Source of the DNA: a virus
Lineage: Duplodnaviria > Heunggongvirae > Uroviricota > Caudoviricetes
Direction: 5' to 3' (one strand)
DNA: 64,000 nt
Virus record (IMG/VR): IMGVR_UViG_3300032245_001714
The notes under the pieces are model-generated. The model saw only the letters and a program-made list of their open reading frames with translations. It had not been told where the DNA came from and searched no databases. A program made the position numbers and the translations under genes. This document shows positions 1 through 59,568 of the stretch, in pieces (position 1 is the first letter of the stretch; each line of letters starts with the position of its first letter).

Positions 1-239
1 GCGTGAAGTGATGGTGAAAGAATCGGATGTCTCTATAGAGCTCCTCCGTTCTCGGGGGTTTGATCTCCTTTAGGTTCCAGCTGAGCATCAGACCTCTGGC
101 TATGGCTTCCTTCTGATCCCTAATGGCTTTCATCCGGGCTTTGCGCTCGAGACCCCTTTGCTCTCTTCCACCTCTGGCCTTGATGGCTTTCTCCAGCCAT
201 CTACTTCTGAGCCATCTGCGCAATGTCATCTTTAGGGCT

Positions 240-458
240 TTAAACATTCTGCTGCGGATTCTGCTGCGGAGAATCGGGAACCGCTGGTCTGGTAAGCAAG
301 CCGATAACATTTAGCAGGATGTTGGCCTTGTCCTCGGGATTAATTCTTGACGAGTCCACCTCTCTGCGGATGGCTAACGTCTGGATATACATTGCTCGGG
401 CTAGTTTTTCCACTTCCTTCTTGTAGCTCTGAAGGAGTGCTTCTGATCTTGGATCCAT
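240..458 (-). CDS. hypothetical protein (72 aa)
   Basis: ORF track entry with protein-like composition. Its ATG follows TAATATATGG and sits 3 nt after the stop of the upstream gene, consistent with a minus-strand operon. Confidence 0.45.
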   Translation of the reverse strand: MDPRSEALLQSYKKEVEKLARAMYIQTLAIRREVDSSRINPEDKANILLNVIGLLTRPAVPDSPQQNPQQNV

Positions 459-461
459 ATA

Positions 462-641
462 TTACTCTTTTTTCTTGTTATTGTCCCTCTTGTCGAAATT
501 GCCGACTCTCTTGTTGACGCACCTCCAGCAAACAACGGACACCGTGTTGATGTCAACGCTGACCTTCTCGGGACAGTGGGTGCAAGCAAGCATCTTATTG
601 CTTCGTGCAAATTTGGGATCTCTTGATTTAACTAATTTCAT
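462..641 (-). CDS. small Cys4 zinc-ribbon protein (59 aa, read by hand)
   Basis: Manual translation: MKLVKSRDPKFARSNKMLACTHCPEKVSVDINTVSVVCWRCVNKRVGNFDKRDNNKKKE. It has a CxxC...CxxC pattern. Its ATG overlaps the stop of 641..961 as TAATG. Confidence 0.4.
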   Translation of the reverse strand: MKLVKSRDPKFARSNKMLACTHCPEKVSVDINTVSVVCWRCVNKRVGNFDKRDNNKKKE

Positions 642-961
642 TACTCTGTGGCTTTAAGTTCTTTTTCCACTTCCCAGTCGGGATTAATCACGAATCCGGG
701 CATGTGTTTCTCTGTGTATCTCTTTAGGAAATCGCAGCGTTCGTACTCCTCCTTCGTGATGAAGAAAGCGGTCATCCGGTTGATGGCTCTTTGAACCGCG
801 GGAATCTCCGCACCCTCTAGGGCTTGCTCACCCCTGGTGGCCAGTAGATCGTAGGCCTCATAACAACCCTCAATGAACTCCTTGCGGGCTCTGAGCCTAA
901 TCATGTGCTGCAACTCATCAGGATCTGGGAAATTGTCGTCGTAGTCTTCTTCGTCGTACAT
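641..961 (-). CDS. hypothetical acidic protein (106 aa)
   Basis: ORF track entry; tightly packed in a minus-strand operon with its neighbours. Confidence 0.5.
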   Translation of the reverse strand: MYDEEDYDDNFPDPDELQHMIRLRARKEFIEGCYEAYDLLATRGEQALEGAEIPAVQRAINRMTAFFITKEEYERCDFLKRYTEKHMPGFVINPDWEVEKELKATE

Positions 962-965
962 AAGA

Positions 966-1190
966 TTATTGGGTTATGATGTTAATAGATGTACAGAGGC
1001 CAAGCTCCTTGACCTCCCTATAAAGGGTGCCTCCCTCCGAGACGATCTCGTACTCGGCTTCGAAAACCGTTGACGTGTCCCTTTTCACCATCTCCCTCAC
1101 TATGGCTCCTCCAGCCATGTAGGTGCGGCGTCTGATCTCCTCGTGTGAGGCCTTGCTGTCAGTTGTGCATGTGAATCTTAGTGCTGCCAT
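966..1190 (-). CDS. hypothetical protein (74 aa)
   Basis: ORF track entry; its start abuts the stop of the upstream small ORF. Confidence 0.45.
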   Translation of the reverse strand: MAALRFTCTTDSKASHEEIRRRTYMAGGAIVREMVKRDTSTVFEAEYEIVSEGGTLYREVKELGLCTSINIITQ

Positions 1191-1192
1191 CT

Positions 1193-1348
1193 CTAAGGGG
1201 TTTTTGGTTTTGGTGCTCTCATGTCTTGAAGCCAGCCTTTAAAGGCTTTCTTCTCTTTGGTGGTCATTTCTCTGTGGAATGATCCGAAGTTCCCGGCCTT
1301 AGCCTCGAACTCCTCGATTAATTGTCTAAGTGATCTTTCTTTGCTCAT
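1193..1348 (-). CDS. small basic protein (51 aa, read by hand)
   Basis: Manual translation: MSKERSLRQLIEEFEAKAGNFGSFHREMTTKEKKAFKGWLQDMRAPKPKTP. Confidence 0.3.
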   Translation of the reverse strand: MSKERSLRQLIEEFEAKAGNFGSFHREMTTKEKKAFKGWLQDMRAPKPKTP

Positions 1349-1413
1349 TGTTCTCTAGTTTACGGAGTTACACCACAAAGGTAATGAATCCCCGTCAGAT
1401 AAAAAAATATTTC

Positions 1414-1635
1414 TCACTTTTTTTTCCCAAACTCTTTTAACTTTTCAGAGATCCACTGGCCTCGTGAACCGTGGATGAAGCTGAAGAGCAGCAGAGCTAT
1501 GATGAAAAACAGTGGGCGACAGAAGTGGGGCCATCCGAAGGGACTAGCAATCTGAGTGAACAGGGCTAAGATCCCGCCGCTAATCCCTAGAGATAGGCCT
1601 AGATTCTTTAGCACTTGGAATGTTGTCTTTTTCAT
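1414..1635 (-). CDS. small membrane protein (73 aa)
   Basis: Two hydrophobic segments; preceded by TATAATAGAT immediately before the ATG. Confidence 0.45.
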   Translation of the reverse strand: MKKTTFQVLKNLGLSLGISGGILALFTQIASPFGWPHFCRPLFFIIALLLFSFIHGSRGQWISEKLKEFGKKK

Positions 1636-1698
1636 ATCTATTATAGATCAAGTCCGCACGTTTGTATCGGGGGCACGGGTGAGTATCTTAATAACATA

Positions 1699-2238
1699 CT
1701 ATACATCTATCCCGGGGAAGGCCCTGAGGATAGCATCCACCATGACCTTCTTCTCCATCCTGTTGGCCTTAGCCGCAGATGCGCTGATCTTGGGGTTAGC
1801 CCTATAGGCAGGGCTGATTAGGTCCTCTAGGATAAACTCCCCTAAGGCCTGATCAAGCTTAATGAGGCTACATCCGGCGTCCCAGTCCTCCATGCCTACT
1901 CCCATCTCCGGTTTAGCCATCTTGTCGTGACGACCCGTAAAGATTTCAGTGGCCAGGTCCTCGCAGGCATCAGGGTCTATGTCTTCATATTCACCGTCGT
2001 AACCGTAGAGGTAGTCCGTGATGAGATCTTCCACCGCTCCGTCCTCTAGATTCAGCATCCAGAGCTCCCTGGCGTTGGGATTCTTAAAGAGCAGTGCCAT
2101 CCACCCGTTCATCCCGAGGGTGGTGAAGAGCTTGTCATTCTCCTCGAGCCCTCGGGCCTTCGTTGGCTCATAGTCCTCTGGGTACTTTGGACCACGGTGA
2201 TACTCGTTGATCTCTCTAAAGGTTTTAATGCGTCTCAT
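1699..2238 (-). CDS. hypothetical acidic protein (179 aa)
   Basis: Long ORF with a D/E-rich, coherent protein-like sequence. Confidence 0.55.
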   Translation of the reverse strand: MRRIKTFREINEYHRGPKYPEDYEPTKARGLEENDKLFTTLGMNGWMALLFKNPNARELWMLNLEDGAVEDLITDYLYGYDGEYEDIDPDACEDLATEIFTGRHDKMAKPEMGVGMEDWDAGCSLIKLDQALGEFILEDLISPAYRANPKISASAAKANRMEKKVMVDAILRAFPGIDV

Positions 2239-2248
2239 AGGCTATCGA

Positions 2249-2368
2249 TTAAAAAAACACCCAGACCAAAAAGCAAATGAGCTTGAGCGTCACATAGAGG
2301 ACTACTCCCATGACACCTCCAATGGCACCGCGGGTCAAAAGCATCAACAACTTGGGTAAGGGCTTCAT
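2249..2368 (-). CDS. small hydrophobic membrane protein (39 aa, read by hand)
   Basis: Manual translation: MKPLPKLLMLLTRGAIGGVMGVVLYVTLKLICFLVWVFF. The ATG is preceded by GATATATAGAGC. Confidence 0.4.
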   Translation of the reverse strand: MKPLPKLLMLLTRGAIGGVMGVVLYVTLKLICFLVWVFF

Positions 2369-2469
2369 GCTCTATATATCGAATCCCAGAGGGGGAGGTT
2401 TCGGGGTGGATCTCCCAGGAGGACCCGCCCACCAAATAGATGATACCCATACTGTTCTGTCTCTTATAG

Positions 2470-2537
2470 CTAGAGAGGAAGAGAAGCATAGGCATAGAGA
2501 TCATAGAGAAGAGAGTAGAGCGAGGCGAGGCGGGACT
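2470..2537 (+). repeat. GA polypurine tract
   Basis: About 65 nt of almost pure purines (tagagaggaagagaagcataggcatagagatcatagagaagagagtagagcgaggcgaggcggga) in a gene-free region. Confidence 0.6.
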
Positions 2538-2607
2538 GCTGGCGGATCTAAGAGGCTCTGAACGGGGCGAAAGCCACCCACGGTTCCGAGACCAGATCGG
2601 GGCGAAT

Positions 2608-2690
2608 CGGGAATCCCGGGGTATCTGGGGGAATTTCTGGAAATTTGTGGGAATTTGTGGGATTTCATGGGAACCGTGGGATCTGGTACC
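2608..2690. repeat. ~10-bp periodic array of degenerate TGGGAATTTG repeats (iteron-like)
   Basis: cgggaatcccgggg / ggggaatttctgg / aaatttgtggg / aatttgtggg / atttcatggg / aaccgtggg / atctgg, with a period of about one helical turn. Confidence 0.5.
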
Positions 2691-2940
2691 CCAGAGGGAT
2701 CTTGGGGGAGAAGCCCGGACCGAGGCGGTGGCCCGAATCGGGGAATCCGAGAAATCAGGGATTTTCACCCTGGGTGGAAGCTCATGCCCACAGAGGGGCT
2801 TCCATAAGGGCCTCTAAAACGCGAACCTGTGGAGGCTATCCCCCGGGACCTCTAAGTCTTGGCCGGGGGAACCTGTGGCATACTACCTTAGTAACATACT
2901 ATGTTTGGGGGACGGGGGTAAGGGTGGACCCTGGGTGGGC

Positions 2941-3351
2941 CTAGACCTTGCTCCAGGTGTAGTCCGCATTCAGGATCACGGAGTACAGGTGTGGCTTGCT
3001 CCACTGGGAGGGTGAGATGAGACTCATAAACCTTGAGCCATCCTCGCTCTGGTACAGATGGTAGCACTCTCCCACTATGGGCTCAAAGGAGCACTTGGCC
3101 GAGTAGACCTCCTGGTTGAGCTCGTACTCCTGCTGCAGCTCCTCTATCTGAAGGATGATCTCCTGGGCTCTTCTCTGTAGGGCTTTGTTCACCTTGTGTG
3201 AGGCTGCTCTGATAAATGGTGTGAGATCTGTGGGTTTGATCTGTGGTGCTCCTATGTGATGTGCGTGTGGCAGTAGGTTTGCCTTTAATGCCACTTTGTC
3301 TTTATGTGATGGTGTGCTCATGTGCTTTATGTATGCCTTATCTATCTTCAT
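2941..3351 (-). CDS. hypothetical protein (136 aa)
   Basis: ORF track entry; an ATACATACTAG-type upstream motif. Confidence 0.5.
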   Translation of the reverse strand: MKIDKAYIKHMSTPSHKDKVALKANLLPHAHHIGAPQIKPTDLTPFIRAASHKVNKALQRRAQEIILQIEELQQEYELNQEVYSAKCSFEPIVGECYHLYQSEDGSRFMSLISPSQWSKPHLYSVILNADYTWSKV

Positions 3352-3391
3352 GCCTATGAGGATGGGTATGGCTAGGGTTATAGCTAGTATG

Positions 3392-3432
3392 TATATTGGG
3401 ATAAGCTATTTGGTGGGCGGGCCCTCGTGGGG
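3392..3432. repeat. partial copy of the GC-rich dispersed repeat
   Basis: tatattgggataagctatttggtgggcgggccctcgtgggga shares the TGGTGGGCGGG..TGGGGA core with the copies at 3954, 4909 and 6083. Confidence 0.4.
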
Positions 3433-3556
3433 AGTAAGGCCCGAAAAGGCCCCAGAGGGATGCAGGTGCCATTTTGGAAACCTGGTCCAGGCGCGTAGGT
3501 GACTAGGACCACAAAAAAGCCTGGAGGTCTCCAGGCTGTATGTGATGTCGGTTCTC

Positions 3557-3949
3557 TTAGTGGTGTTTGGAGGCTATCCGATCCATGGCTTGGGCGAGCT
3601 TATAGTCTCTCTCTGTGATCACATCCCCTGCGTCATGGGTTCTGAGCCAGCACTGGACGGTCTTGAAGATGTTGGTCCACTTGGGGTGGTGATTCATTCG
3701 GTTGCACACCTCTGCGACTTCGTTCATAAATGACATAGCAACGTTGAAGTCTTTGAAATCGTATCTCTTATAGAGCGAGTTGTCTCTCTCTGTCCATCCT
3801 GCAGGAGCTTGGACTGGCATCTCCGTTTCTTTAACAGGCACACATCTAGGCACTCTCCTGCCTCCCTTCATCTTGGTGCCAATCTGTTTGTATCCAGACC
3901 AGCATGGGCCTTTGGCCTCGTCTATGTGGTAGGGTTGTATGTGTTTCAT
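3557..3949 (-). CDS. pterin-4a-carbinolamine dehydratase (PCD/DCoH) domain protein with N-terminal extension
   Basis: The C-terminal half, ...FMNEVAEVCNRMNHHPKWTNIFKTVQCWLRTHDAGDVITERDYKLAQAMD, matches the PCD signature (HHPEW..., TH, G-[IL]-[ST]-x-[RK]-D, LA). Starts MKHIQPY with the upstream motif GATATATAGAGC. Confidence 0.65.
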   Translation of the reverse strand: MKHIQPYHIDEAKGPCWSGYKQIGTKMKGGRRVPRCVPVKETEMPVQAPAGWTERDNSLYKRYDFKDFNVAMSFMNEVAEVCNRMNHHPKWTNIFKTVQCWLRTHDAGDVITERDYKLAQAMDRIASKHH

Positions 3950-3961
3950 GCTCTATATATC
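3950..3961 (-). promoter_or_regulatory. GATATATAGAGC start-proximal motif, minus strand, inside the GC-rich block
   Basis: Reverse complement: gatatatagagc followed by ATG (MKHIQPY). Confidence 0.4.
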
Positions 3962-3998
3962 ATTGGTTCTGGTGGGCGGGTCTCCCTGGGGATTCGAT
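3954..3998. repeat. GC-rich dispersed intergenic repeat, copy 1
   Basis: tatatatcattggttctggtgggcgggtctccctggggattcga. Confidence 0.55.
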
Positions 3999-4036
3999 CC
4001 CAAATGACTCCACATATGCTCTGTGATATATAGCTT

Positions 4037-4258
4037 ATGAACATAGATTTTCCAAAGGCCAAATTCTTGTCTAGGTTTGGCAACATCAAGGCCAGCAAGG
4101 AGGAATCCGACCGCATGTTTAGGCAGTTTCTCTGGGAGGAGGAGGAGAGGGAGCGAATGATGTTCACGAGGGAGGCGGAGCAAGCCGGTGGCGCTGGCTT
4201 AACTCAAGACTACATGGAATATGATTATATGATAGATGCAGCAAATTACGTAGACTAA
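4037..4258 (+). CDS. hypothetical protein (73 aa)
   Basis: The ATG is preceded by TGATATATAGCTT. Confidence 0.5.
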   Translation: MNIDFPKAKFLSRFGNIKASKEESDRMFRQFLWEEEERERMMFTREAEQAGGAGLTQDYMEYDYMIDAANYVD

Positions 4259-5045: not shown

Positions 5046-6041
5046 ATGAAACATCTCCTTAATTTTTCGGGTTTCCTCTTTGAGGACAACGGCTCTTCGG
5101 CCGATCAGACACCTTGCACCTACTATCAGGACAAGCAGGGTGACAGTGGTTATAAAAACTTCTGGGCGGAATACAGTAACATGTCACCCGAGGAACAAAA
5201 GACCAAAATGAAGGGGATCACAGCTGGAGTCTTGGATTTGCTTGAGGTCATCAAGGACGAGTACACCAAGTGGTACAGCAATCCTGCCACCATAAAGAAG
5301 TTCACGCAGGAGGAGGATAAGGTTAGAATGAAACTGCTCTCTGAGTACCTGCCTAAAATAACCTGCAAGCTTCACACCAAGCCAGATCCTAATGCCTCTA
5401 AGATGAAGCAGGCATCATGGGGTTGGTTTTCCGCAAAAGCTCCATATATTATAAATGTGGCTCTTTACAACTTCTTCAACGGCAAGTCCACAGGAAACAA
5501 GAGCATAAAGGACACTATCAAACACGAAATGGCCCACGCTATTGACGCCTACTTCTCCGAGAACGGGGTGAGAGCCTATGACGCCACCCACCCTCCAATC
5601 ACAACGCCGGGCGAGTATGAAAGAATCTACCTGATGAATGACAAGGATCAATTTGCAAGACTTAATATTCTCAGAGGCATCATCAAAGCCGGTCCGACTG
5701 ACTCTGGCAAACAGCTGCTGGTTAAGTTTTTAGATGAAGCGAAAAAGGGCAAGATCTCCTCAGAGAGCTTTGATTTTAAAGGCGGTGTTAGTCCCAAAGG
5801 TGACCTTTATCTTTTAAGAATGATCCCCAAGAGGATGGAGGGAGTGAAAGGCAAGGTGCCTTTAGATGTGGCCAAGAAGGTCTACTCCAGCATGATGAAT
5901 AAAGGAGCCATTATGGTGGGAGGCAAAGAAAACTTCAATCTAGAGCAGCTCTTCTCAAATTTTGGTAGGATCATCAACAACGAGATTGTGATCAATATGA
6001 GCGATATAGCCCAATTGAACTACTCATCCAAAAACATGTAA
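5046..6041 (+). CDS. putative zinc metallopeptidase (HExxH) carrying the N-terminal tag (331 aa)
   Basis: HEMAH in IKHEMAHAIDAYF; N-terminus MKHLLNFSGFLFE; ATATATAAGGGC lies immediately upstream of the ATG. Confidence 0.55.
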   Translation: MKHLLNFSGFLFEDNGSSADQTPCTYYQDKQGDSGYKNFWAEYSNMSPEEQKTKMKGITAGVLDLLEVIKDEYTKWYSNPATIKKFTQEEDKVRMKLLSEYLPKITCKLHTKPDPNASKMKQASWGWFSAKAPYIINVALYNFFNGKSTGNKSIKDTIKHEMAHAIDAYFSENGVRAYDATHPPITTPGEYERIYLMNDKDQFARLNILRGIIKAGPTDSGKQLLVKFLDEAKKGKISSESFDFKGGVSPKGDLYLLRMIPKRMEGVKGKVPLDVAKKVYSSMMNKGAIMVGGKENFNLEQLFSNFGRIINNEIVINMSDIAQLNYSSKNM

Positions 6042-13953: not shown

Positions 13954-14055
13954 GGTCAGGTGGTGTAATGGCAACATGGGGTTCGACCCCCCAATCAACC
14001 CAGTAGTGGGACGATACAGAAAGGCAAGATACAGGTTCGAATCCTGTCCTGACCG
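13954..14055 (+). tRNA. tRNA-like gene, atypical (~102 nt)
   Basis: Acceptor GGTCAGG/CCTGACC, D arm GTGT-AATGGCA-ACAT and T arm ACAGG-TTCGAAT-CCTGT, but about 51 nt lie between the D and T arms. One hairpin there, GGGG-TTCGACC-CCCC, could carry a CGA anticodon, which would make it Ser-like. Confidence 0.5.
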
Positions 14056-25884: not shown

Positions 25885-26307
25885 CTAAATGTTTTTAATT
25901 TCTCTTTCGATCTCTCTTGATCTAATCCTTTCTCTTTTGTCATATTCCTTTCTTCCTTTAGCTAGAGAAATCTTTACCTTTATTAAATTCCTATCTGATA
26001 AAAAAATTAGGGTTGGAACTATAGTGACCCCTTTATCTAAACCCTTTTGAAGTTTTGAAATCTCTTTCTTTTTTAGTAAGAGTTTTTTATTTCGAAGTGG
26101 ATCGTGGTTCCAGTCCTTAGAATCTGCTGAGATGTGCATGCCTTTTAGCCACACCTCGCCATCTTGTATAAAGCAAAAAGCATCCACCAGAGAAACCCTT
26201 GATTCTCTGATGGCCTTAACTTCAGATCCATAGAGGCATATACCTGCGTTAAATTCCTCTATAAAGCTGTAATCAAAATTAGCTTTTCTGTTTTTTATCG
26301 GATTCAT
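25885..26307 (-). CDS. smpB: SsrA-binding protein SmpB homolog
   Basis: Colinear with E. coli SmpB: EEFNAGICLYGSEVKAIR, HDPLRNKKLLLKKKEI, KVKISLAKGRKEYDKRE. Confidence 0.75.
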   Translation of the reverse strand: MNPIKNRKANFDYSFIEEFNAGICLYGSEVKAIRESRVSLVDAFCFIQDGEVWLKGMHISADSKDWNHDPLRNKKLLLKKKEISKLQKGLDKGVTIVPTLIFLSDRNLIKVKISLAKGRKEYDKRERIRSREIEREIKNI

Positions 26308-40812: not shown

Positions 40813-41907
40813 TTATCCTGCTTTAAGTAAAAAGTTATTAGAAATGGCTTTAAAAGATATTGATTTATCTTTATTCCTAATAACCAATCCTTCTCTTTCT
40901 GTCTGTTCGTTCAACCTAGATTTACCCTCTGCTTGAATTAAAACCTCCTCTATGGTCGAAGGAAGTTTATAATCGTAATAAATCACCGGAACGAGCTCTA
41001 ATGGCTTATCGTCAACATTTATCTTTTCTAGTATTCTAATCATATCATCAAGTCCCAAATACTCCCGGGTGTCTATGTTGAACATGTTGAATATTTTAAC
41101 CGTTTGACCTTTAATCTTATATGGATTTCCCTGTATCCCTTCGCCGATGAGTTCTCCCTGAATCGCGTAGTTACCTTCAAGAGTTCCCAATTTCTCTTCG
41201 ATGAAAAGTTCTCTGGCAACTTTCCAAAACGTATTTTCCTCTGTTTCTAATAGCTCTAAATTTCTTGAACAAACTCCAAACACACCATTATTAAAATAAT
41301 ATGTTGCAGAGCTTCCGTCAAGTTTTTCTGTTACGTAATAGTGCTTATCACGCATGCTATCGAATTCTTTAGTCATGTTCTGGATTCTCTCCTCGTCGGT
41401 CTTTCTGATAAATCCTGGGAAATAGCCTTTTACCTTTCCTGCTAATGAAGCTGGGATCGGAGGTTCATATTTTAATATCCCAAGATAGTCAGTAAGATCC
41501 ATCCCCTCCTCTATAATCATTGCATCATCATAAGGACCTAATTGTAACTGATTTCCCCAAGGCTGCTCTGAAATCCCTACTACCATTTCTTCAAACTCTT
41601 TACTGTTTAAAACTGAAAGAGGAAGACAAAGTCCCTGAGAGATTTGTCCTCGGAGTTTTATTGTCTTTAATCTAAATCCCTCTTTATCTCCCATTTTTTT
41701 AAACGAAGATTTTCTTAGAAATTCAAACTCTTCCCTCACAGGTAAGAAAGAATCTATCTCGAAATAGACACAAAGGTCTCCTTCGTTAAACTCCCCTTTC
41801 TTTGAGACAACCTTCCATGAATTCACGGTTACTATTTCTATTGCGTCCGCTCCCCCGATAGGAAGAATTTTTCCAATTCTCTGTATCGAAGCTAATTTTC
41901 TTTCCAT
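40813..41907 (-). CDS. ATP-dependent RNA ligase, DRB0094/Rnl5-like
   Basis: KxDG adenylation motif TEKLDGSS; N-terminus RKLASIQRIGKILPIGGADAIEIVTVNSWKVVSKKGEFNEGDLCVYFEIDSFLP, typical of this ligase family. Confidence 0.55.
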   Translation of the reverse strand: MERKLASIQRIGKILPIGGADAIEIVTVNSWKVVSKKGEFNEGDLCVYFEIDSFLPVREEFEFLRKSSFKKMGDKEGFRLKTIKLRGQISQGLCLPLSVLNSKEFEEMVVGISEQPWGNQLQLGPYDDAMIIEEGMDLTDYLGILKYEPPIPASLAGKVKGYFPGFIRKTDEERIQNMTKEFDSMRDKHYYVTEKLDGSSATYYFNNGVFGVCSRNLELLETEENTFWKVARELFIEEKLGTLEGNYAIQGELIGEGIQGNPYKIKGQTVKIFNMFNIDTREYLGLDDMIRILEKINVDDKPLELVPVIYYDYKLPSTIEEVLIQAEGKSRLNEQTEREGLVIRNKDKSISFKAISNNFLLKAG

Positions 41908-47031: not shown

Positions 47032-47436
47032 TTAACTTGAGAATTTTTCGTATGATTGTAGATATTCTGAAATGTTTCTTCCTCCTGCTGGATTCATCGA
47101 ATGAACTCTATATTTAGGAAGTTTTATCCCTTTATCCGTACAATAATCAACTAACCATTTTGCACAATCTAAACCTGTCTTCTCTTTAAAAGACTCGTAG
47201 TTTTTATTATACTCCTCCATCCCCTTGTACATGTCCTGTGAGTAGTGTTCGTCTGCAAGATCATGATCGAAAGAAATAAACTCAGGAAGTCCTTGAGCAT
47301 TAATAATTTCTACGAATTCGTCATAGCTTCTTGCAATCGTCCATTCCCAGTTTGTATACATTGCTCCGTCTAACATGTACCTCTGGCAATCCGCCGGGTA
47401 TCTAAAATCGTCTAAAAAAAGATTATATTGTGTCAT
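47032..47436 (-). CDS. hypothetical protein (134 aa)
   Basis: ORF track entry. Confidence 0.5.
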   Translation of the reverse strand: MTQYNLFLDDFRYPADCQRYMLDGAMYTNWEWTIARSYDEFVEIINAQGLPEFISFDHDLADEHYSQDMYKGMEEYNKNYESFKEKTGLDCAKWLVDYCTDKGIKLPKYRVHSMNPAGGRNISEYLQSYEKFSS

Positions 47437-47813
47437 TTTATTATTATGAATGCTTTTTGTGATTTGATCACGGTTAGGTGAAAGAGATAGTCCACGAGTC
47501 GGTATTTTTCTTTCTGGTGTTTTATATCCATCGAACCCAGTATAGTTCCCACCTGAAGTAGGTTGCTTTTGATCTTTTTATTAAAAACCACCTCGGCTTT
47601 ATTAACCCCTGTGAGAAGAGTTTCGTTAACATAATCAAGCATGAGTTTTAGATTTTTTTCTGTTCTGTGCTCGAAAGCGTATTTGCAATAAAGATGCACA
47701 GTCAACCTTTCAACCTCTTTTGATAGCAGCTCGAGAATATGCGAAACCTCACTCTCGGTTAGTCCGTAGTGTTTATACAGATCCTTTTCTATCTCAATGT
47801 TGATTCTCACCAA
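47433..47813 (-). CDS. hypothetical protein (126 aa)
   Basis: ORF track entry. Confidence 0.45.
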   Translation of the reverse strand: MVRINIEIEKDLYKHYGLTESEVSHILELLSKEVERLTVHLYCKYAFEHRTEKNLKLMLDYVNETLLTGVNKAEVVFNKKIKSNLLQVGTILGSMDIKHQKEKYRLVDYLFHLTVIKSQKAFIIIK

Positions 47814-47814
47814 T

Positions 47815-48264
47815 TTAAAGTTTAACCTCGAACCTCTGTCTCATTTTTTCTAGAGTCTCTGCTGGAACGTTGTGTACATTGTTGTTTCCATGACGGTTTT
47901 CAACGATCAGAGAAACCACCTGATATTGATATTTCTTAGCAAGGTCTAAATAAGCCTGCATCTCCCATTCCTGAGTGAACGTGTTTGACACTACGATCTC
48001 CGGGTAATACTGGGGATTAACTTGGTGATCTTTCATTCTGGTCTCAACTTCGTTTCTGCACCATTCGTGAGCTTCTTTCAACCTTGATGCTTCAAAGTTG
48101 TATTCACCAGTTTCCTTGTTGTGAAAAAACTTATCAGCCTCGCAGATTGCATAGTCATTCCAGATGTGCTTTGCAAAAGTTGATTTACCAGATCCAGGTA
48201 TTCCTCTCACAAGAAATAGTGTTGGATTTAATGTGCTGTATCCTTCGTTTCTTACGTTTTCCAT
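47815..48264 (-). CDS. polynucleotide 5'-kinase-like P-loop kinase (AAA_33 / T4 Pnk kinase-domain-like)
   Basis: GIPGSGKSTFAK Walker A; CEADKFF; VVSNTF, compared with T4 Pnk GCPGSGKST...RDDYR...SDTNL. Confidence 0.6.
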   Translation of the reverse strand: MENVRNEGYSTLNPTLFLVRGIPGSGKSTFAKHIWNDYAICEADKFFHNKETGEYNFEASRLKEAHEWCRNEVETRMKDHQVNPQYYPEIVVSNTFTQEWEMQAYLDLAKKYQYQVVSLIVENRHGNNNVHNVPAETLEKMRQRFEVKL

Positions 48265-48422
48265 ATTATTCTTTTATTCTTTTGGTTCTCCAGAACCAAT
48301 TACCTCTTAAATGTTTTCTGCCCTCTGGATAAAATTGGGGTTGATCAAAAGCGATCCACCACAATTCCAATTTCCAAATAAAAAATCTTCTTTCTGAAAC
48401 ATTGTATTCTAGCATCTTATTT

Positions 48423-49115
48423 CTATTTAGGCGTTGTAAAATAATAAAAATCAGTCACGTTACCACAAAAATCTATGACACTGAAAGTGCTCCTTATCTT
48501 CCCGTGAAGCTGTAGATTTTTTTTTCGATCATCGGGGTCATGTGTTTCACACGCGATCTTATCAATCCTAGAAAGGATGGATGGACTTAATGAATCAAAG
48601 ACATCATACTCAAATCCCTCGATGTCTATTTTTAAAAAATCTATTTTTTCTAGCTGATAAATCTCCATTATTTTTTTAATAGTAAACTCGATTGGATTTT
48701 TTCTGTCTGTCCATACTCTTCCCGATGGAATATAGGTATCCGCTGGGATTTCACCGGTGACTATGGAGTTACAAAAATAAACGTTATCTCTGTCCGAGTT
48801 ATTTTCAACCAGACAAGAATAATGTTCAGGACTACCTTCGATAGAGATAACTTTCTTAGCAATTCTAGAAGCTCCATGTGTAAATAATCCTATGTTTGCA
48901 CCCAAATCAACAACCACCGATCCCGGTTCGATCACGCAGTCCCACATTTGGTAACAGCAATTTTTTGGTGAATAACTAAAATAATAATTCTCCTTGTAGA
49001 AAAAATCATATTCCCAGCAGGAATCCAATTCTTTAACATGATCAAAAGTTTTATATCCATAGGTATTTGTAGCACGATCCCAATATTTCCACTTTTTACC
49101 TTCTATGTGTTCCAT
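48423..49115 (-). CDS. FkbM-family methyltransferase
   Basis: VVDLGANIGLFT, SIEGSPEHYSCLVEN, IDFLKIDIEGFEYDVF, IACETH. Confidence 0.7.
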   Translation of the reverse strand: MEHIEGKKWKYWDRATNTYGYKTFDHVKELDSCWEYDFFYKENYYFSYSPKNCCYQMWDCVIEPGSVVVDLGANIGLFTHGASRIAKKVISIEGSPEHYSCLVENNSDRDNVYFCNSIVTGEIPADTYIPSGRVWTDRKNPIEFTIKKIMEIYQLEKIDFLKIDIEGFEYDVFDSLSPSILSRIDKIACETHDPDDRKKNLQLHGKIRSTFSVIDFCGNVTDFYYFTTPK

Positions 49116-49137
49116 TTTCTATTTTTTTATTTTTTTT

Positions 49138-49779
49138 TTATTCTTCCGTGTGATGATCTTTAGGTAGAACCAGGTGCCTAACAGGTCTACCCTTCATTAT
49201 TTTCAATATCTCATTTAAGCTATAAGGCTCCAGATTGTTTCCGTCTACTCCAACGTCCATTGCTTGTCCTTCGTGGATCTTTAATCTGGGCGGTAGATGA
49301 ACATGTCCATGTAAATGAGGAACCCCTTTATTCATTCCATCCCAACTTGCTATTGGGAAGTGACAGCATACGAATTGGTACTTACCCGTCTCTTTACCCT
49401 CTGGCCTACGGATATCTATAATATCATAGCTACTAACGTGCTTGAAGTACCCCTGTACCCCCTCCTTATTATTTCTAATGTGATGATCGTGATTTCCTAA
49501 AAATAGAATAATGTTTTTGCATACTATTTTATTTCTGAACTCGATAATAGATTCGAATCCACCAAAGCTCCAGTCTCCCATATGAACCAAATAATCGTCC
49601 GGTCCAACGACCGAGTTTATTCCTGCTACTATAGCATCATTCATTTCACCTAGAGAGTGAAAATCCCGTGTACCTCTTCCTTTAGGCCAGTTTGAAACTC
49701 CACGACAAATATTTTGGTGCGAAAAATGCGAATCGGAGGTGAAAAATATGTTCTGATTTTTTTCTAATATAATTTTCAT
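49138..49779 (-). CDS. calcineurin-like metallophosphoesterase
   Basis: TSDSHF (DxH), GDWSFGG, GNHDHH, GHVH. Confidence 0.75.
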   Translation of the reverse strand: MKIILEKNQNIFFTSDSHFSHQNICRGVSNWPKGRGTRDFHSLGEMNDAIVAGINSVVGPDDYLVHMGDWSFGGFESIIEFRNKIVCKNIILFLGNHDHHIRNNKEGVQGYFKHVSSYDIIDIRRPEGKETGKYQFVCCHFPIASWDGMNKGVPHLHGHVHLPPRLKIHEGQAMDVGVDGNNLEPYSLNEILKIMKGRPVRHLVLPKDHHTEE

Positions 49780-49782
49780 TTT

Positions 49783-50922
49783 TTAATCTTTTTTAATCCA
49801 TTTTGAATCCACTGGTATTTCTTCCTCTCTATTCCAAAATGGCTTTTGATACTTTGGTTTTACTATCTTCCAGATTATATGATCGTATTTCTTTCCGTCC
49901 CACATAGCAAAACATATGGATCTTATGCTGGGCTCAACATTACAAAATTCTAGATGTTCAGCAAATTCTTTCTTAGTAGGCTCATTCTCTCGATCCCAAT
50001 ATCTTCCATATCTAAAATACTCATAGATCTTTTCCGCTCTTTCCTCGACTTTACATCGGTGATATTCTAGACTGTGTATTGTTTTCTTAACCCACTTGTC
50101 AAATTCGTCAGGAACTCTTTCTAGAAATTCTTCAATGTTTCTTCCTTCTTTTAAAAGCTCCCAGATGTCGACATTCGAGAAATTGGTCAATAGTCGATGC
50201 AATCTAACATAATCTTCGCCTTTGATCTTCATTCTAAGTCCGGATTTGAATTTAACAACAAATCCCTCAGATTCTCCGTCTATCATTTTCTTAAGCTTCT
50301 TATAATCGTCTATCCCATCGTACTTCTTAACCATCTTAAATCCCAAGTTGTTATATAAATTTACGAATCTAATACCCTCTAAATGTATGCTATTATGGTG
50401 GATTCTAAGTTCATAACCATCTTTGTTATCAATTACCCCAAGAAGTATTAAGTCCTCATAGTCATAGTTGCACACGATCCTGTTTTCGGGATAGATGATC
50501 TCGAACAGATAGGTAAATCCTGGGATCAGTCTCTCATATCTGTATTTTTTTAGGATTTCTCTACCCCTAATTGCCTGCTCAGATGCAAAAGATCCTCTGG
50601 TCGCTAAGTGCCACTCATCGGCATAATGGAAAAGTATGCCTAGAGACCCGTCCAATTTTTCGAAAACCTCGAATTCCTCATTAGGTATTTCCTCTGGCTT
50701 ATGCTCCTCCATGTTAAAAAACTTGGGGAATGGTTTAGCAATAACATTTCCCTCCCGGTCTAAAACAGTGCCTCTCATATTTAAAGTGATCTCGTCCCAA
50801 GACTCCGTGAACTGACATTCCCTTGAATAATTATAGATATCAAGCGGTAATGTCGGGTGTGGATTCCTTTCTAAAAGACCCCTCTGGATATAGGCGTTAA
50901 GAGTGTTTAAATCGTATTTCAT
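49783..50922 (-). CDS. RNA ligase, T4 Rnl1-like
   Basis: Motif I EKLDGSL, compared with T4 RnlA KEDGSL; 379 aa against T4 Rnl1 at 374 aa. Confidence 0.6.
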   Translation of the reverse strand: MKYDLNTLNAYIQRGLLERNPHPTLPLDIYNYSRECQFTESWDEITLNMRGTVLDREGNVIAKPFPKFFNMEEHKPEEIPNEEFEVFEKLDGSLGILFHYADEWHLATRGSFASEQAIRGREILKKYRYERLIPGFTYLFEIIYPENRIVCNYDYEDLILLGVIDNKDGYELRIHHNSIHLEGIRFVNLYNNLGFKMVKKYDGIDDYKKLKKMIDGESEGFVVKFKSGLRMKIKGEDYVRLHRLLTNFSNVDIWELLKEGRNIEEFLERVPDEFDKWVKKTIHSLEYHRCKVEERAEKIYEYFRYGRYWDRENEPTKKEFAEHLEFCNVEPSIRSICFAMWDGKKYDHIIWKIVKPKYQKPFWNREEEIPVDSKWIKKD

Positions 50923-55239: not shown

Positions 55240-55442
55240 ACTTCTTGATTGTATGTTTTATCGTAATACTCTTTTGTATTCATCATCTCTTCCTGATAAT
55301 AGCCATCGTAGCAAGCTTTGTTTATTTGTTCTTTTTCCATCTCTTTGGCTTTTTCAAATATATTATTTACTGAAGATGAAAACTTAAATTTCTCCCATAA
55401 TTCTTGTCTTAACCATTCTACTGCTGTCTGTTTGTTTTTCAT
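55236..55442 (-). CDS. hypothetical protein (68 aa)
   Basis: Overlapping start and stop codons with its neighbours. Confidence 0.4.
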   Translation of the reverse strand: MKNKQTAVEWLRQELWEKFKFSSSVNNIFEKAKEMEKEQINKACYDGYYQEEMMNTKEYYDKTYNQEV

Positions 55443-56200
55443 TTTAAAAATATTTTAAGTGTTTTATTGTCATCTTGTAATTGTATTTCAACATCTTTAG
55501 CATTATAATTTGTGTATGCCCTACCATTATAAGGTTCGGAATGTTGTATTACTTCTACTCTTGTAACTTTTGATGTGTCAAGAATTTTTTGTTTATTAGT
55601 ATTATCTAAAAACTCATTAACAGTTGGACCAACATTATCATATTCCACACTCTTAGCCCAATCTTCCAATACTTTTTCCATAGGTGTTTCCTCAAAATAT
55701 TGTTTTAATTTTTCTGAAAAGTCAAAACTTAGAGCAGCATAAAAGTTACTTTCTTGTTTAGGTTTACCAACGTGAGTAATAGTAATACCTCTTTTAGGAA
55801 TAATGATTTTATAAATTGAAGTTAGTTTTTCTTCATCCCATATTAATCTTTGGTCTACGTATCCACAATTTGGATTCTTTACAAACCATTCAAGAAAGTC
55901 ATCATCAATAGCTTGTACACCATCTTCGATTAAGTCTTCGTCTGTGGTTAGTATGATTTTCCTCCAATCATCAGGTAACATTTCAGTTCCATTATGTTTA
56001 GATATTATACCACTTGGACTGCAATACCAATCTCCTTCTTTAACTTCTTCATCGGAAGTGATGTAGATGTTTTGACATTTCTCTTTAGGAAACACTTCTT
56101 GAAGTGTGTATTGATTATTTAATAAAAGAGTAGTTTCTTTTAAAAATAACCTACTTGGTTTATCTGTTGGTATTAAGTGTATGTTTTTCATATCTATCAA
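55439..56200 (-). CDS. hypothetical protein (253 aa)
   Basis: ORF track entry. Confidence 0.5.
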   Translation of the reverse strand: MIDMKNIHLIPTDKPSRLFLKETTLLLNNQYTLQEVFPKEKCQNIYITSDEEVKEGDWYCSPSGIISKHNGTEMLPDDWRKIILTTDEDLIEDGVQAIDDDFLEWFVKNPNCGYVDQRLIWDEEKLTSIYKIIIPKRGITITHVGKPKQESNFYAALSFDFSEKLKQYFEETPMEKVLEDWAKSVEYDNVGPTVNEFLDNTNKQKILDTSKVTRVEVIQHSEPYNGRAYTNYNAKDVEIQLQDDNKTLKIFLK

Positions 56201-57016: not shown

Positions 57017-57113
57017 TAGTCAGGGTCGGATTCGAACCGAGTACCGTTCAAGACGGATTAAGCAACCATTTAACTGGATTCGGGAACCATCCCCTCATTA
57101 CGCCCACCTGACT
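57017..57113 (-). tRNA. tRNA-like gene E1, atypical (97 nt)
   Basis: Reverse complement: AGTCAGG-TG-GGCG... with T arm TCGG-TTCGAAT-CCGA, acceptor CCCTGACT and discriminator A. A second degenerate T-arm-like motif lies inside. Adjacent upstream is a further fragment with CGG-TTCGAGT-CCG. Confidence 0.4.
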
Positions 57114-57183
57114 CGGACTCGAACCGTTGAAAACACCACCTTTCGGTGCAACAAAACCCTGACCCCAGAGTTGTTATTGTCAG

Positions 57184-57290
57184 TAGCCAGGACAGGATTC
57201 GAACCTGTGAGCCCTCGTGTATGGGTATCATACATACCACACCCAAGGACTTTATGTATGCTCAGCGTTAAGCCACTCCGCCACCTGACT
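57184..57290 (-). tRNA. tRNA-like gene E2, atypical (107 nt)
   Basis: Reverse complement: AGTCAGG-TG-GCGGAGTGGCTTAACGC (Leu/Ser-type D arm), a 47-nt internally paired insert, T arm ACAGG-TTCGAAT-CCTGT, acceptor CCTGGCT, discriminator A. Confidence 0.5.
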
Positions 57291-57506
57291 ATGTTACCCC
57301 ACCTTGAGATTACTGGTGAGTAGATATATCGGTTTTCTTTCTTTCAATAAACCTGTGGGTCTTATCCTCTTAAAATTAGTCAAACTACTTGGAGCCTCTG
57401 TTACCTAGCTTTAACCCAAAGAGACTGGCGTTTAAGGATGTCCAGTCCAATACCCTACCCATTGTTTAAGTCTTGGATTAAAGACTCTGAGTACCTCTTA
57501 CTCATT

Positions 57507-57621
57507 GTAGTCAGGACCCGATTCGAACGGGTACGATGTACTTCTCTTACATCTCGGAATTAATGGCCTCACGAATTACTTCGTTAGCTTACTTGTTGCG
57601 TCTACCCTTCCGCCACCTGAC
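57507..57621 (-). tRNA. tRNA-like gene E3, atypical (115 nt)
   Basis: Reverse complement: AGTCAGG-TG-GCGGAAGGGTAGACGC (tRNA-Leu-like D arm), about 60 nt with two hairpins, T arm ACCCG-TTCGAAT-CGGGT, acceptor CCTGACT, discriminator A. Confidence 0.5.
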
Positions 57622-57627
57622 TATTTT

Positions 57628-57697
57628 TAAAAACAGACCTTAAAAGACGTATTATTCTTCTCATTATCCTTCTAGATGGGAAGCGTGGGTCTGTTTT
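57628..57697. terminator. long inverted repeat (11-bp stem AAAAACAGACC/GGGTCTGTTTTT) between tRNA-like genes; bidirectional terminator or processing hairpin
   Basis: Seen directly in the sequence. Confidence 0.4.
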
Positions 57698-57721
57698 TAG
57701 TATTATTCAAAGAACTTTTTG

Positions 57722-57814
57722 TAGTCAGGACAGGATTCGAACCTGTGACCTTTGTCTTTTGGTTCCGCCGTAAGCGGATTACTCACCAACACGCTACCAT
57801 TGCGCCACCTGACT
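57722..57814 (-). tRNA. tRNA-like gene E4, atypical (93 nt)
   Basis: Reverse complement: AGTCAGG-TG-GCGC-AATGGTA-GCGT; stem TTGGT/ACCAA encloses 21 nt containing a TCCGC-TTACG-GCGGA hairpin; T arm ACAGG-TTCGAAT-CCTGT; acceptor CCTGACT; discriminator A. Confidence 0.5.
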
Positions 57815-58110: not shown

Positions 58111-59568
58111 TTAAAACCTTTTTAGAACATATACTTTTCTACTTGCTCTAGTGTATGCAGTGTACTTAATTCGATTTCTCTCAACGATATCCCAATTCAT
58201 GTCGATATCATCTTCAAGTACAAATGTTGTGTTATATGTACTTCCTTGCGATTTGTGGGCGGTTATGCAATAACCATAATTCACATCAGCATATTTTCTA
58301 AGGAAATTGTAGTATATGATCCAACTTTTATTCTTGCCTTTCTTCTCGATAGCTCTTAGTTTAAAAATGTTTGCTAACTTCTTAAATTCTCCCTCGCTAT
58401 CTTCATGAAGGATCTCTATGTTAATCTTTATCTTATCGTCTTCGTCATCTATATACGAAACTACTGCGTCGTAGTATTTGAGAGTTACTGCTAAAGGATC
58501 TGCGTCGGGGTGATCTGACACCTGATAGCGTAGATCGTCGCTCTTGATTGTAAAGCTTTCCACTGTAAACTCCTCGTTGGTGTTCAGAACTACGGTCTCG
58601 CCTTGAATAATCGGACTGTTAGCAATTAGCTTCTCGCCAACCAATATCTTAGAGCCCAAAGCCTCGTCTCCGTAGATAACTCTACGGATAACGTCATTCA
58701 TTGTTGCAACAGTTTTATTTCTCCATGCAATGATCTTGGCGTACTCTGAATCTTTTTTGAAATCCTCGGTCACGAAATACTCCTTCAGTCTTTCTGAAAA
58801 TCCTCTTCTTATCTCCGGATCATTAAGATTCAAAAATTCTATGCCTTCGCCATTAGGATTTAGTTTAGTAACAGGTTCAACCGGATTTTTAGATCCTCCC
58901 AAATCAGATCGGATAGCAACAGAGGATTCTATGATAGCATTACCCTCCTTCTGTCTCATGATCCGTTTAAGATCGAGTGTCTTGATTCTGTATGCTGAGG
59001 CTAATTCCTCCCTAAATGGAATGCAATCAGGTCTTCCGACAGGAGGTATTTGTGCTGGATCACCCATGCAGATGATCTTGATCTTTCCCCTATATTTTAG
59101 GATCTCGTGAAAAAGGTCATCATTTAACATTGACACCTCATCTATAATGAGAAGCTTGATTGAATTGATCTGAGGTTTGAAGTCCCCTTGATTCACAAAT
59201 TCCTGCTTTCCATCGCTGGTGATCTTCTCTGTTAACCCTAGCAATTTGTGTATTGTTTGGAATGTAACCCTGCCGTTCTTAAGACCACTAGTTTTCTTAA
59301 TCACTCTTACTGATTTATTAGTCGGTCCAGTAACTGCTATTTTGTACCAATTATGTGTGGGATGGATAGAATCTAGAACATATCTAACTAAAACGCTTAC
59401 ACAGTAGGTTTTACCTGTTCCTGCCCAACCTTTGAGAACGTAAACGCTATCATCTAATGGATCACAAACAAATCCCACTAACTCATCAAAGGCTTTCCTC
59501 TGATCAGAGTTAAGTGACTCTAAGTCTATTATGGGTTTCTTCTTTTTAGCTTTACTCATTAAGGGCAA
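58111..59568 (-). CDS. SF1B helicase (T4 Dda / RecD / Pif1-like)
   Basis: Walker A GWAGTGKTY; motif II LIIDEVSM; a C-terminal RecD-like domain. Confidence 0.7.
   Translation of the reverse strand: MPLMSKAKKKKPIIDLESLNSDQRKAFDELVGFVCDPLDDSVYVLKGWAGTGKTYCVSVLVRYVLDSIHPTHNWYKIAVTGPTNKSVRVIKKTSGLKNGRVTFQTIHKLLGLTEKITSDGKQEFVNQGDFKPQINSIKLLIIDEVSMLNDDLFHEILKYRGKIKIICMGDPAQIPPVGRPDCIPFREELASAYRIKTLDLKRIMRQKEGNAIIESSVAIRSDLGGSKNPVEPVTKLNPNGEGIEFLNLNDPEIRRGFSERLKEYFVTEDFKKDSEYAKIIAWRNKTVATMNDVIRRVIYGDEALGSKILVGEKLIANSPIIQGETVVLNTNEEFTVESFTIKSDDLRYQVSDHPDADPLAVTLKYYDAVVSYIDDEDDKIKINIEILHEDSEGEFKKLANIFKLRAIEKKGKNKSWIIYYNFLRKYADVNYGYCITAHKSQGSTYNTTFVLEDDIDMNWDIVERNRIKYTAYTRASRKVYVLKRF

Follow-up and report, generated by a model that had tools for sequence, protein, structure and literature searches.

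Phage tRNA clusters carry tRNA-like RNAs with a shared tRNA-Leu-derived frame and diverse structured centres

Bacteriophage T4 encodes two small stable RNAs, species 1 and species 2 (rnaC and rnaD), within its tRNA cluster, where they abut tRNA genes. One of these, rnaC, ends in a T arm (CCGGG-TTCGAAT-CCCGG) followed by an acceptor-like 3' strand and a CAA trailer. Here we describe small RNA genes with a comparable placement and 3' end in a 64,000-nt stretch of phage DNA (IMG/VR record IMGVR_UViG_3300032245_001714; hereafter the window), in which four tRNA-like elements, E4, E3, E2, and E1, follow one another on the minus strand between positions 57814 and 57017. They belong to a family of viral tRNA-like non-coding RNAs with an unusual modular design, in which a frame of acceptor stem, D arm, and T arm encloses a centre that differs from member to member. 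The relation to T4 is one of analogy, not homology: comparison by eye, with no alignment made, revealed no sequence similarity to rnaC or rnaD, T4 has two unique RNAs rather than one frame with many centres, and rnaC is without an obvious full acceptor stem or D arm.

The engineered tRNA scaffold of Ponchon and Dardel has the same architecture. There the acceptor, D, and T arms are reportedly kept while the anticodon arm is swapped for a structured RNA, and the cell is said to process and stabilise the product. That scaffold is a laboratory design, whereas the family described here is natural and widespread, with its processing predicted. The tRNA-like units of the gammaherpesvirus 68 TMERs, of MALAT1 mascRNA, and of mitochondrial tRNA punctuation recruit RNase P or RNase Z, which cut a longer transcript and so free their neighbours, in a non-decoding role. 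These systems are eukaryotic and their cargo lies beside the unit, whereas in the phage family it lies inside the frame, with a second structured RNA, here called X RNA, also found beside it. Transfer-messenger RNA (tmRNA) likewise combines a tRNA-like acceptor and T arm with a large pseudoknotted insert, and the window phage encodes SmpB. Unlike tmRNA, the family lacks the alanine pair (position 3:70 is U3:A70, not G3:U70), has a normal D stem, and has centres too short and diverse for a tag frame. In YrlA-type bacterial Y RNAs the tRNA-like part lies within the molecule and the two ends make up the stem that binds Ro, whereas here the ends make up the acceptor stem. YrlA-type RNAs mimic the acceptor, D, and T region of tRNA and are tied to RNA repair and quality-control loci (PMC4201824). 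A Ro60 gene was not found among the ~40 window open reading frames (ORFs) scanned. Canonical tRNA-Leu shares with the family an identical D arm, A73, type II size, and a place in tRNA clusters. It differs in having an anticodon arm, with normal anticodon loops in the same phages, where its acceptor stems are diverse and never AGUCAGG. Our preferred reading, held with moderate confidence, is that the family is a chassis with cargo, a tRNA-Leu-derived frame that is excised and stabilised by the tRNA machinery and carries swappable structured modules.

We define the family by an acceptor stem AGUCAGG/CCUGACU or a one-pair variant, discriminator A73, the T arm ACAGG-UUCGAAU-CCUGU, and a non-canonical centre. 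As read from the matches, the frame runs AGTCAGG-TG-GCGGAAT(T)GGTAGACGC ... ACAGG-TTCGAAT-CCTGT-CCTGACT-A, with a different centre each time. In the window, coordinates were taken from a direct reading of positions 58200–56700 on the minus strand, which confirmed the four minus-strand elements of 93–115 nt reported in an earlier note on this DNA. All four begin AGTCAGGTGG and share the 7-bp acceptor stem, the T arm with loop TTCGAAT, and discriminator A. Their 3' ends are as that note gave them, CCTGACT plus A in E4, E3, and E1 and CCTGGCT plus A in E2, where a U3:G70 wobble results. Of the D arms ascribed to all four, those of E2–E4 are of tRNA-Leu type, but E1 lacks the standard GCGG...CGC arm. 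The T arms had been called perfect, but the E1 stem has 4 bp and a C:C mismatch (CTCGG/CCGAC). E4 and E2 thus match the frame fully, E3 has a compensated T stem, and E1 has an atypical 5' half, in which a GGG-AUGGUU-CCC hairpin may substitute for the D arm.

The centres of these elements have little in common. E4 (57814–57722, 93 nt) has the D arm GCGC-AAUGGUA-GCGU and the T arm ACAGG-UUCGAAU-CCUGU. In place of the anticodon arm it has a UUGGU/ACCAA helix around a GAGUAAU bulge and a CCGC...GCGG hairpin, and this centre has no homolog among ~290 loci. E3 (57622–57508, 115 nt) combines the tRNA-Leu D arm GCGG-AAGGGUAGA-CGC with a T stem that is a compensatory variant (CCCG/CGGG). Its centre contains the hairpin CGAA-GUAA-UUCG and a variable-arm-like hairpin GAUGUA...UACAUC, and is found again in loci L214 and L273, where it is 85% identical and one pair has changed by compensation. 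E2 (57290–57184, 107 nt) has an H-type pseudoknot as its centre, built from stem A (CAUACAU/AUGUAUG) and stem B (GGUGU/ACAC), and both stems covary across the window, L114, L005, and L116. E1 (57113–57017, 97 nt) has homologs in L045, L235, L213, L076, L230, L244, and L278, while its likeness to L234, L096, and L228 is confined to the 3' half. Across other contigs, the centres of E3 and E1 recur at 75–100% identity.

None of the elements has a standard anticodon arm with a U33 loop, and on this point, which the earlier note had made by hand-folding, structure prediction, Rfam alignment, and an arm scan agree. Minimum-free-energy (MFE) folds recovered the acceptor stem and T arm in E2–E4 and the D arm in E3 and E4, with no 7-nt U33 loop and no canonical cloverleaf bearing an ordinary anticodon for E2–E4; the unconstrained fold of E1 (z -0.65) misses its T arm. 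With the Rfam tRNA model E4 reaches 52.5 bits and E2 33.9 bits, scores that depend on passing over 32–43 nt at the site of the anticodon arm. The upper half of the molecule was compared with that of a canonical tRNA in all six tRNA-like elements of the window, which include S and P, two elements outside the group of four that are described below. E1–E4, P, and S have a 7-bp acceptor stem and a discriminator base, and in E2, E3, E4, and P there is also a D arm with GG and a 5-bp T arm whose loop fits UUCRANY. Neither the scan nor the Rfam alignment found in any element a 5-bp stem with a 7-nt loop carrying U33 and a purine at 37. When ARAGORN was run on the window elements, E4 alone was called, with an implausible anticodon (Asp 'atc'), and there was no tmRNA match.

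The earlier note listed intron-containing tRNAs among its options, in which case the repair enzymes of the phage (Rnl1, kinase, phosphoesterases) would splice the elements into decoding tRNAs. An RNA-repair cassette does lie at 47032–50922 on the minus strand, with a cREC cyclic-phosphate domain, an AAA_33 kinase, an FkbM-type methyltransferase, a metallophosphoesterase, and an Rnl1-type ligase, and many family members are called by ARAGORN in intron mode. These calls, like the anticodon calls, are uninformative because shuffled centres score alike: intron mode called 138 of 177 real members and 120 of 177 with shuffled centres, and outside that mode ARAGORN called 49 and 42 of 177. Instead of interrupted anticodon arms, the centres consist of pseudoknots, long tetraloop hairpins, or extra T-loop hairpins, short members (67–75 nt) have a tetraloop-type hairpin at the anticodon-loop site, and one identity set would have to be common to all members whatever the 'anticodon'. 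Inserts of 43–65 nt in E2–E4 and P are below the size of a group I core (~200 nt or more). Rfam gave no intron match in the window elements, and the 3-4-3 bulge-helix-bulge motif had no dedicated search. Some of the contigs that carry the family are short, the smallest under 5 kb, and its recurrent neighbours in ~128 loci do not include a ligase. We consider splicing into decoding tRNAs very unlikely and conclude that frame-family RNAs are unable to decode codons.

The window also encodes a genuine SmpB homolog (25885–26307, minus strand, 140 aa, with a KKLLLKKKE motif). Together with the pseudoknot of E2 and the tRNA frame and pseudoknotted central insert of tmRNA itself, it makes conceivable a set of miniature tmRNA-like SmpB partners that enter stalled ribosomes without an anticodon. 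Against this stand the U3:A70 pair, the full D stem, and the failure of any tag frame to be conserved among centres. Neither the tmRNA mode of ARAGORN nor the Rfam tmRNA families matched the elements, and no tmRNA was detected in the 64-kb window. Ordinary tmRNAs were predicted by ARAGORN in 5 of 292 loci, related phage loci among them, and would serve SmpB, while an SmpB gene was present in only one (L203) of ~240 viral loci. We regard a tmRNA-like role as highly improbable. The RNA-centred neighbourhood that the earlier note found attractive is real in its content but weak as an argument: the repair cassette is 6.1–9.0 kb, the second ligase (PHA02142/Rnl2 type, 40813–41907, minus strand) 15.1 kb, and SmpB 30.6 kb from the cluster, and no link of the repair genes or SmpB to the tRNA-like RNAs was found.

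Beyond the window, the pattern of shared ends matches at least 120 IMG/VR viral contigs. A custom scanner requiring just a 7-bp acceptor stem and a T arm was applied to the loci selected by the frame. Of 256 elements that have no canonical anticodon arm, 174 carried AGTCAGG and 14 more a one-base variant of it; among 175 canonical tRNAs AGTCAGG occurred in none. Since this first set was frame-selected, a control sample of 114 loci was picked by an unrelated motif, that of X RNA. It contained 947 canonical-like and 158 non-canonical elements, and the frame was found in 126 of the latter (80%), with a frame member present in 58 of the 114 loci. The frame also occurred in 14 of the 947 elements that passed a loosened anticodon-arm test; most of these are long and visibly non-canonical, and a few short ones might hold a real anticodon loop. 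The 7-bp stem shared by the cluster is thus far beyond chance.

The frame is specific to phages. When one genome from each of 185,579 bacterial and archaeal species was scanned, the true frame turned up only on seven short contigs of metagenome-assembled genomes, which are probably mis-binned phage. All other genome matches were ordinary tRNA-Ser genes of Verrucomicrobia, Pelagibacterales, and Algimonas, with GGTCAGG, different D and T arms, and G73. These were the only candidates for a host tRNA with the same frame, in a scan that a tRNA with a different T loop would escape. Neither the frame in INPHARED nor a nucleotide match to the cluster region was found among cultured phages. The window itself is a phage-like genome without a near relative in culture, and its helicase has less than 30% identity to any cultured phage. 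One metagenome-assembled phage, MW202828.1, has a member whose acceptor stem is fully compensated (AGTGCAG/CTGCACT). The family is apparently undescribed; full-text literature searches returned no description of the frame family or of X RNA, and a survey of structured RNAs in IMG/VR mentions tRNA-like candidates that it does not specify.

The frame is derived from tRNA-Leu. Consensus positions 5–26 are 100% identical (22/22 nt) to annotated E. coli tRNA-Leu genes, and among 1,555 ARAGORN-typed tRNAs of the loci the nearest counterpart of the family D arm is that of tRNA-Leu (0.78 identity vs <=0.68 for other isotypes), although some members have class-I-type D arms. The discriminator is A in 171 of 188 members. 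Nucleotides that make the tertiary contacts of the tRNA elbow are kept (U8, A14, the D-loop GG, and the T-loop UUCGAAU), and the leader AAAU and trailer CAA are the same as those of canonical tRNAs in these loci; CCA is not encoded. Canonical isoacceptors compared across loci share 64–76% of the upper half and 33–67% of the acceptor 5' strand. Within the family the upper half is 89% shared (~80% outside the bases forced by the search pattern), and the centres are 47% shared, which is about random. Compensated variants in the T stem of E3 and in the acceptor stems of L177, L108, L114, and L072 indicate that the fold is under selection, yet one sequence dominates. In Tenacibaculum phages pT24 and Gundel_1, among others, genes of a similar kind have been annotated by pipelines as 'tRNA-Undet' or 'tRNA-OTHER', as might be expected of decaying tRNA pseudogenes. 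With a frame better conserved than the functional tRNAs of the same loci, and with centres that covary, decay is scarcely credible.

Tenacibaculum phage pT24 has analogous 'tRNA-Undet' genes with other frames. Two of them, at L175 2790–2868 and 3157–3235, are near-identical 79-nt genes with the acceptor strand GGUUGUA and a 10-bp hairpin in the place of the anticodon arm, and this pair might be used as a model in experiments on anticodon-less tRNA-like RNAs.

The centres behave as structured modules, several of which are under selection. Whole elements are 67–139 nt long, and 178 distinct elements fall into 144 groups with unrelated centres, 124 of them singletons. Centres fold better than their dinucleotide shuffles, with a mean z of -0.79 compared with -0.26 for random genomic pieces (p 6e-5), and recurring centres keep their helices through compensatory changes. 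The eight members of the L017 group share an 8-bp stem, an inner hairpin, and invariant single-stranded stretches, and this centre survives a change of acceptor stem between the L017 group and MW202828.1. Similarly, the L026-type centre is found on both AGTCAGG and GACCGGG frames (L108 vs L026, L053, and L099). Extra T-loop-like hairpins occur in the centres of P, L011, and L022. No motif is common to all centres, and GUGAGA is mildly enriched (9–20 of 134 centres). Two origins or functions considered for the centres were rejected: as antisense guides to phage genes, they match the 64-kb window, in either sense, over no longer stretches than shuffles do, and as captured genome fragments, their only matches in 1.2 Mb of loci are other copies of the elements.

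These data bear on an alternative in which only the upper half of the molecule matters. The RNAs would then be decoys, an option also listed in the earlier note, or sponges, charged or not, for a protein that reads the acceptor/T minihelix or the 3' end, and the centre would drift. Candidate readers include host anti-phage toxins that cleave or modify the acceptor ends of tRNAs, leucyl-tRNA synthetase (LeuRS), EF-Tu, and a Leu-tRNA-dependent transferase. Such a role would suit the acceptor stem, T arm, and A73, which are conserved far beyond those of any canonical isoacceptor, and the extreme diversity of the centres in sequence and length. E. coli LeuRS needs the D arm and elbow of tRNA-Leu and A73 and does not read the anticodon, with which the tRNA-Leu D arm and A73 of the family agree. 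Drift of the centre does not sit well with recurring centres that are conserved through compensatory changes and contain invariant single-stranded stretches, or with the retention of the same centre on different acceptor stems, and a decoy needs no five or six versions per genome. We assign this alternative an appreciable but low probability.

Comparison of related loci shows that recombination occurs within the frame. Between the window and L045, identity is 98–99% over a segment that opens with the E2 T arm, takes in the spacer, and closes with the final base of E1; the E2 centre, the sequence upstream of that centre, and the sequence downstream of E1 are unrelated. In L234 and L096, 3' halves of E1 are fused to unrelated 5' halves, and across ~290 loci similarity in this region starts and stops at element boundaries. 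These junctions mark recombination breakpoints inside the frame. They raise the question of whether the frame acts at the level of DNA, as a recombination linker or mobile boundary homogenised among clusters, with an RNA of little function. Breakpoints of related phages inside the frame and at element ends, and neighbouring genes that are unrelated between loci, are what such a linker would produce. However, the kept elbow nucleotides, the compensated variant stems (E3, L177, L108, and L114), and the tRNA-type leader and trailer of the flanks indicate selection on the RNA fold, and we find a purely DNA-level role unlikely.

The genomic setting is that of phage tRNA clusters with full ordinary tRNA sets, in or near which the elements lie. 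Members abut another tRNA less often than canonical tRNAs do (4% vs 40%), 25–28% have a flanking ORF within 40–60 nt, and an ORF-element-ORF arrangement is found for 9% of members and 1% of canonical tRNAs. The first two bases of E4 are the AG of the TAG stop of an upstream 80-aa ORF, and such a start overlapping an upstream ORF stop occurs in 17 of 314 members. The zinc-ribbon ORF found upstream of both E4 and the MW202828.1 element is not a general feature.

In the chassis-with-cargo reading that we prefer, the frame would take each element through RNase P cleavage, 3' trimming, and CCA addition, probably through T-loop modification, and possibly through charging by LeuRS. Each element would be cut from a long phage transcript as a stable RNA, and the same cuts would free the neighbours, namely the 217-nt X RNA, the structured spacers, and the flanking cistrons. 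The central module would be the working part, as a pseudoknot or a protein-binding or RNA-binding site, while the shared frame would serve as a homology handle for the exchange of modules between phages. Processing, charging, and the existence of module targets are inferred here from sequence. The tRNA-derived family retaining acceptor and elbow, one of the options in the earlier note, is the one that the comparative data match.

Several observations weigh against this reading. A pure folding scaffold does not explain near-invariant acceptor and T stems, for which either a partner that reads their sequence or homogenisation through recombination would account. Most centres are singletons, and selection is shown for only ~20 groups. 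No module target emerged, as antisense matches in the 64-kb window are at chance and the centres have no common motif. Finally, no protein co-occurs within ~7 kb in more than 17 of ~128 loci, the largest gene cluster, at 17, being terminase. A bolder form of the hypothesis makes the frame a universal chassis for hundreds of modules, which it would excise, stabilise, and perhaps leucylate, with a sequence-specific partner and a handle for trade between unrelated phages. We consider this form possible but lean against it.

X RNA, which the earlier note did not remark on, occupies the gap between E3 and E2 exactly (57507–57291, minus strand, ~217 nt). It starts one base past the upstream discriminator with (C)AAUGAGUAAGAGGUACUCA, ends with AAUCUCAAGGUGGGGUAACAU directly at the 5' end of E2, and is not a tRNA-like element. 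Its 19-nt 5' motif matches at least 120 viral contigs. The 3' motif is present in 91 of 120 extracted copies, 81 of which are 200–219 nt and ten 250–279 nt long. Wherever the flanks suffice, copies sit between tRNAs or tRNA-like elements, and in 24 of the 91 copies the gene that follows belongs to the frame family; an X RNA followed by an E2-type element is colinear in L005, L248, and L287. In the first pseudoknot, where a hairpin loop pairs downstream, 46 non-redundant sequences show 3–6 pair types per position, and further helices covary. Two more pseudoknots and a possible GAGAU/AUCUC loop-loop contact were seen by eye. X RNA (228 nt searched) had no match in Rfam 15 even at E<=10 and none in cultured phages, and by-eye signatures of RNase P, T-box, HDV-like, and glmS RNAs failed. 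No consistent or significant duplex between X RNA and the frame was found. Because X RNA starts one base after a discriminator, self-cleavage or a role in processing of the tRNA cluster is worth testing.

In two phages, a conserved 105-nt anticodon-less element with another frame, CCAUUCU/AGAAUGG, lies directly upstream of X RNA (L005 reverse complement 4013–4117, plus strand 841–945; L092 reverse complement 5924–6028, plus strand 504–608).

The spacers of the window cluster are also structured. The one between E4 and E3 (57721–57623, minus strand, 99 nt) folds with a 12-bp long-range stem, AAAAACAGACC/GGUCUGUUUUU (MFE z -2.67), and is weakly similar to L099. A run of U ends the 3' strand of this stem. 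Judged from the predicted fold, the spacer could be an unusual terminator or a further small RNA. The conserved 70-nt spacer between E2 and E1 (57183–57114, minus strand) contains a hairpin, a CACC-GAAA-GGUG (GNRA) hairpin, and a T-loop-like CGG-UUCGAGU-CCG hairpin adjoining E1, and is 96–100% identical in L045, L213, L235, and L066. This entire spacer is what the earlier note saw as a degenerate fifth copy abutting E1. It does have a GGTCAGG-like 5' part and the T-loop-like hairpin, but it lacks a 3' acceptor strand, and instead of being a dead copy it may function as a 5' extension.

Two further elements had likewise gone unremarked. P (13954–14055, plus strand) is a solitary sixth member of the frame family, a G1:C72 and G73 variant (GGUCAGG/CCUGACC) that scores 42.8 bits with the Rfam tRNA model and has a partial homolog in L036. 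Its centre opens with a T-arm-like hairpin, GGGG-UUCGACC-CCCC. P lies between two plus-strand ORFs, 9 nt after one and 14 nt before the next, a placement that fits a transcript-processing site. S (56924–56861, minus strand) is a 64-nt 'armless' tRNA-like element with acceptor stem AGCUGGG/CUCAGCU and discriminator G. It has a D-like hairpin without GG in the loop, the T arm UGGG-UUCAAUU-CCCA, and only ~12 nt at the site of the anticodon and variable arms, and its score with the Rfam tRNA model, 29.3 bits, is just at threshold. A counterpart (L177 637–697) directly follows the frame-family member in MW202828.1, and a strict pattern for S matched just one more viral contig.

A conserved protein of 253–290 aa with no Pfam match, encoded at 55439–56200 on the minus strand of the window and at 1377–2249 in L045, shares the stretch IYITSDEEVKEGDWYCSP between the two. 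It accompanies the tRNA-like clusters in both, at a different relative position in each. At the other end of the window, positions 1–4000 have a G+C content of 0.49–0.53 compared with ~0.35 elsewhere, and may be of different origin.

Clusters of tRNA genes in phages are usually read as supplying codons or countering host defence, and their odd members are filed as 'tRNA-Undet' or pseudogenes. The results presented here indicate that a substantial share of these odd members form one coherent modular family that is better conserved than the real tRNAs nearby, and X RNA adds a second unreported RNA class in the same loci. From the invariance of the acceptor/T minihelix a specific partner is predicted. 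Should the modules be effectors, they would constitute a large unexplored pool of phage regulatory or anti-host RNAs and a natural precedent for RNA expression in a tRNA scaffold. If the frame is a universal chassis, then together with X RNA it would make phage tRNA clusters general non-coding RNA factories rather than codon-supply loci. The family also bears on a 50-year-old question, the purpose of the species 1 and 2 RNAs of T4.

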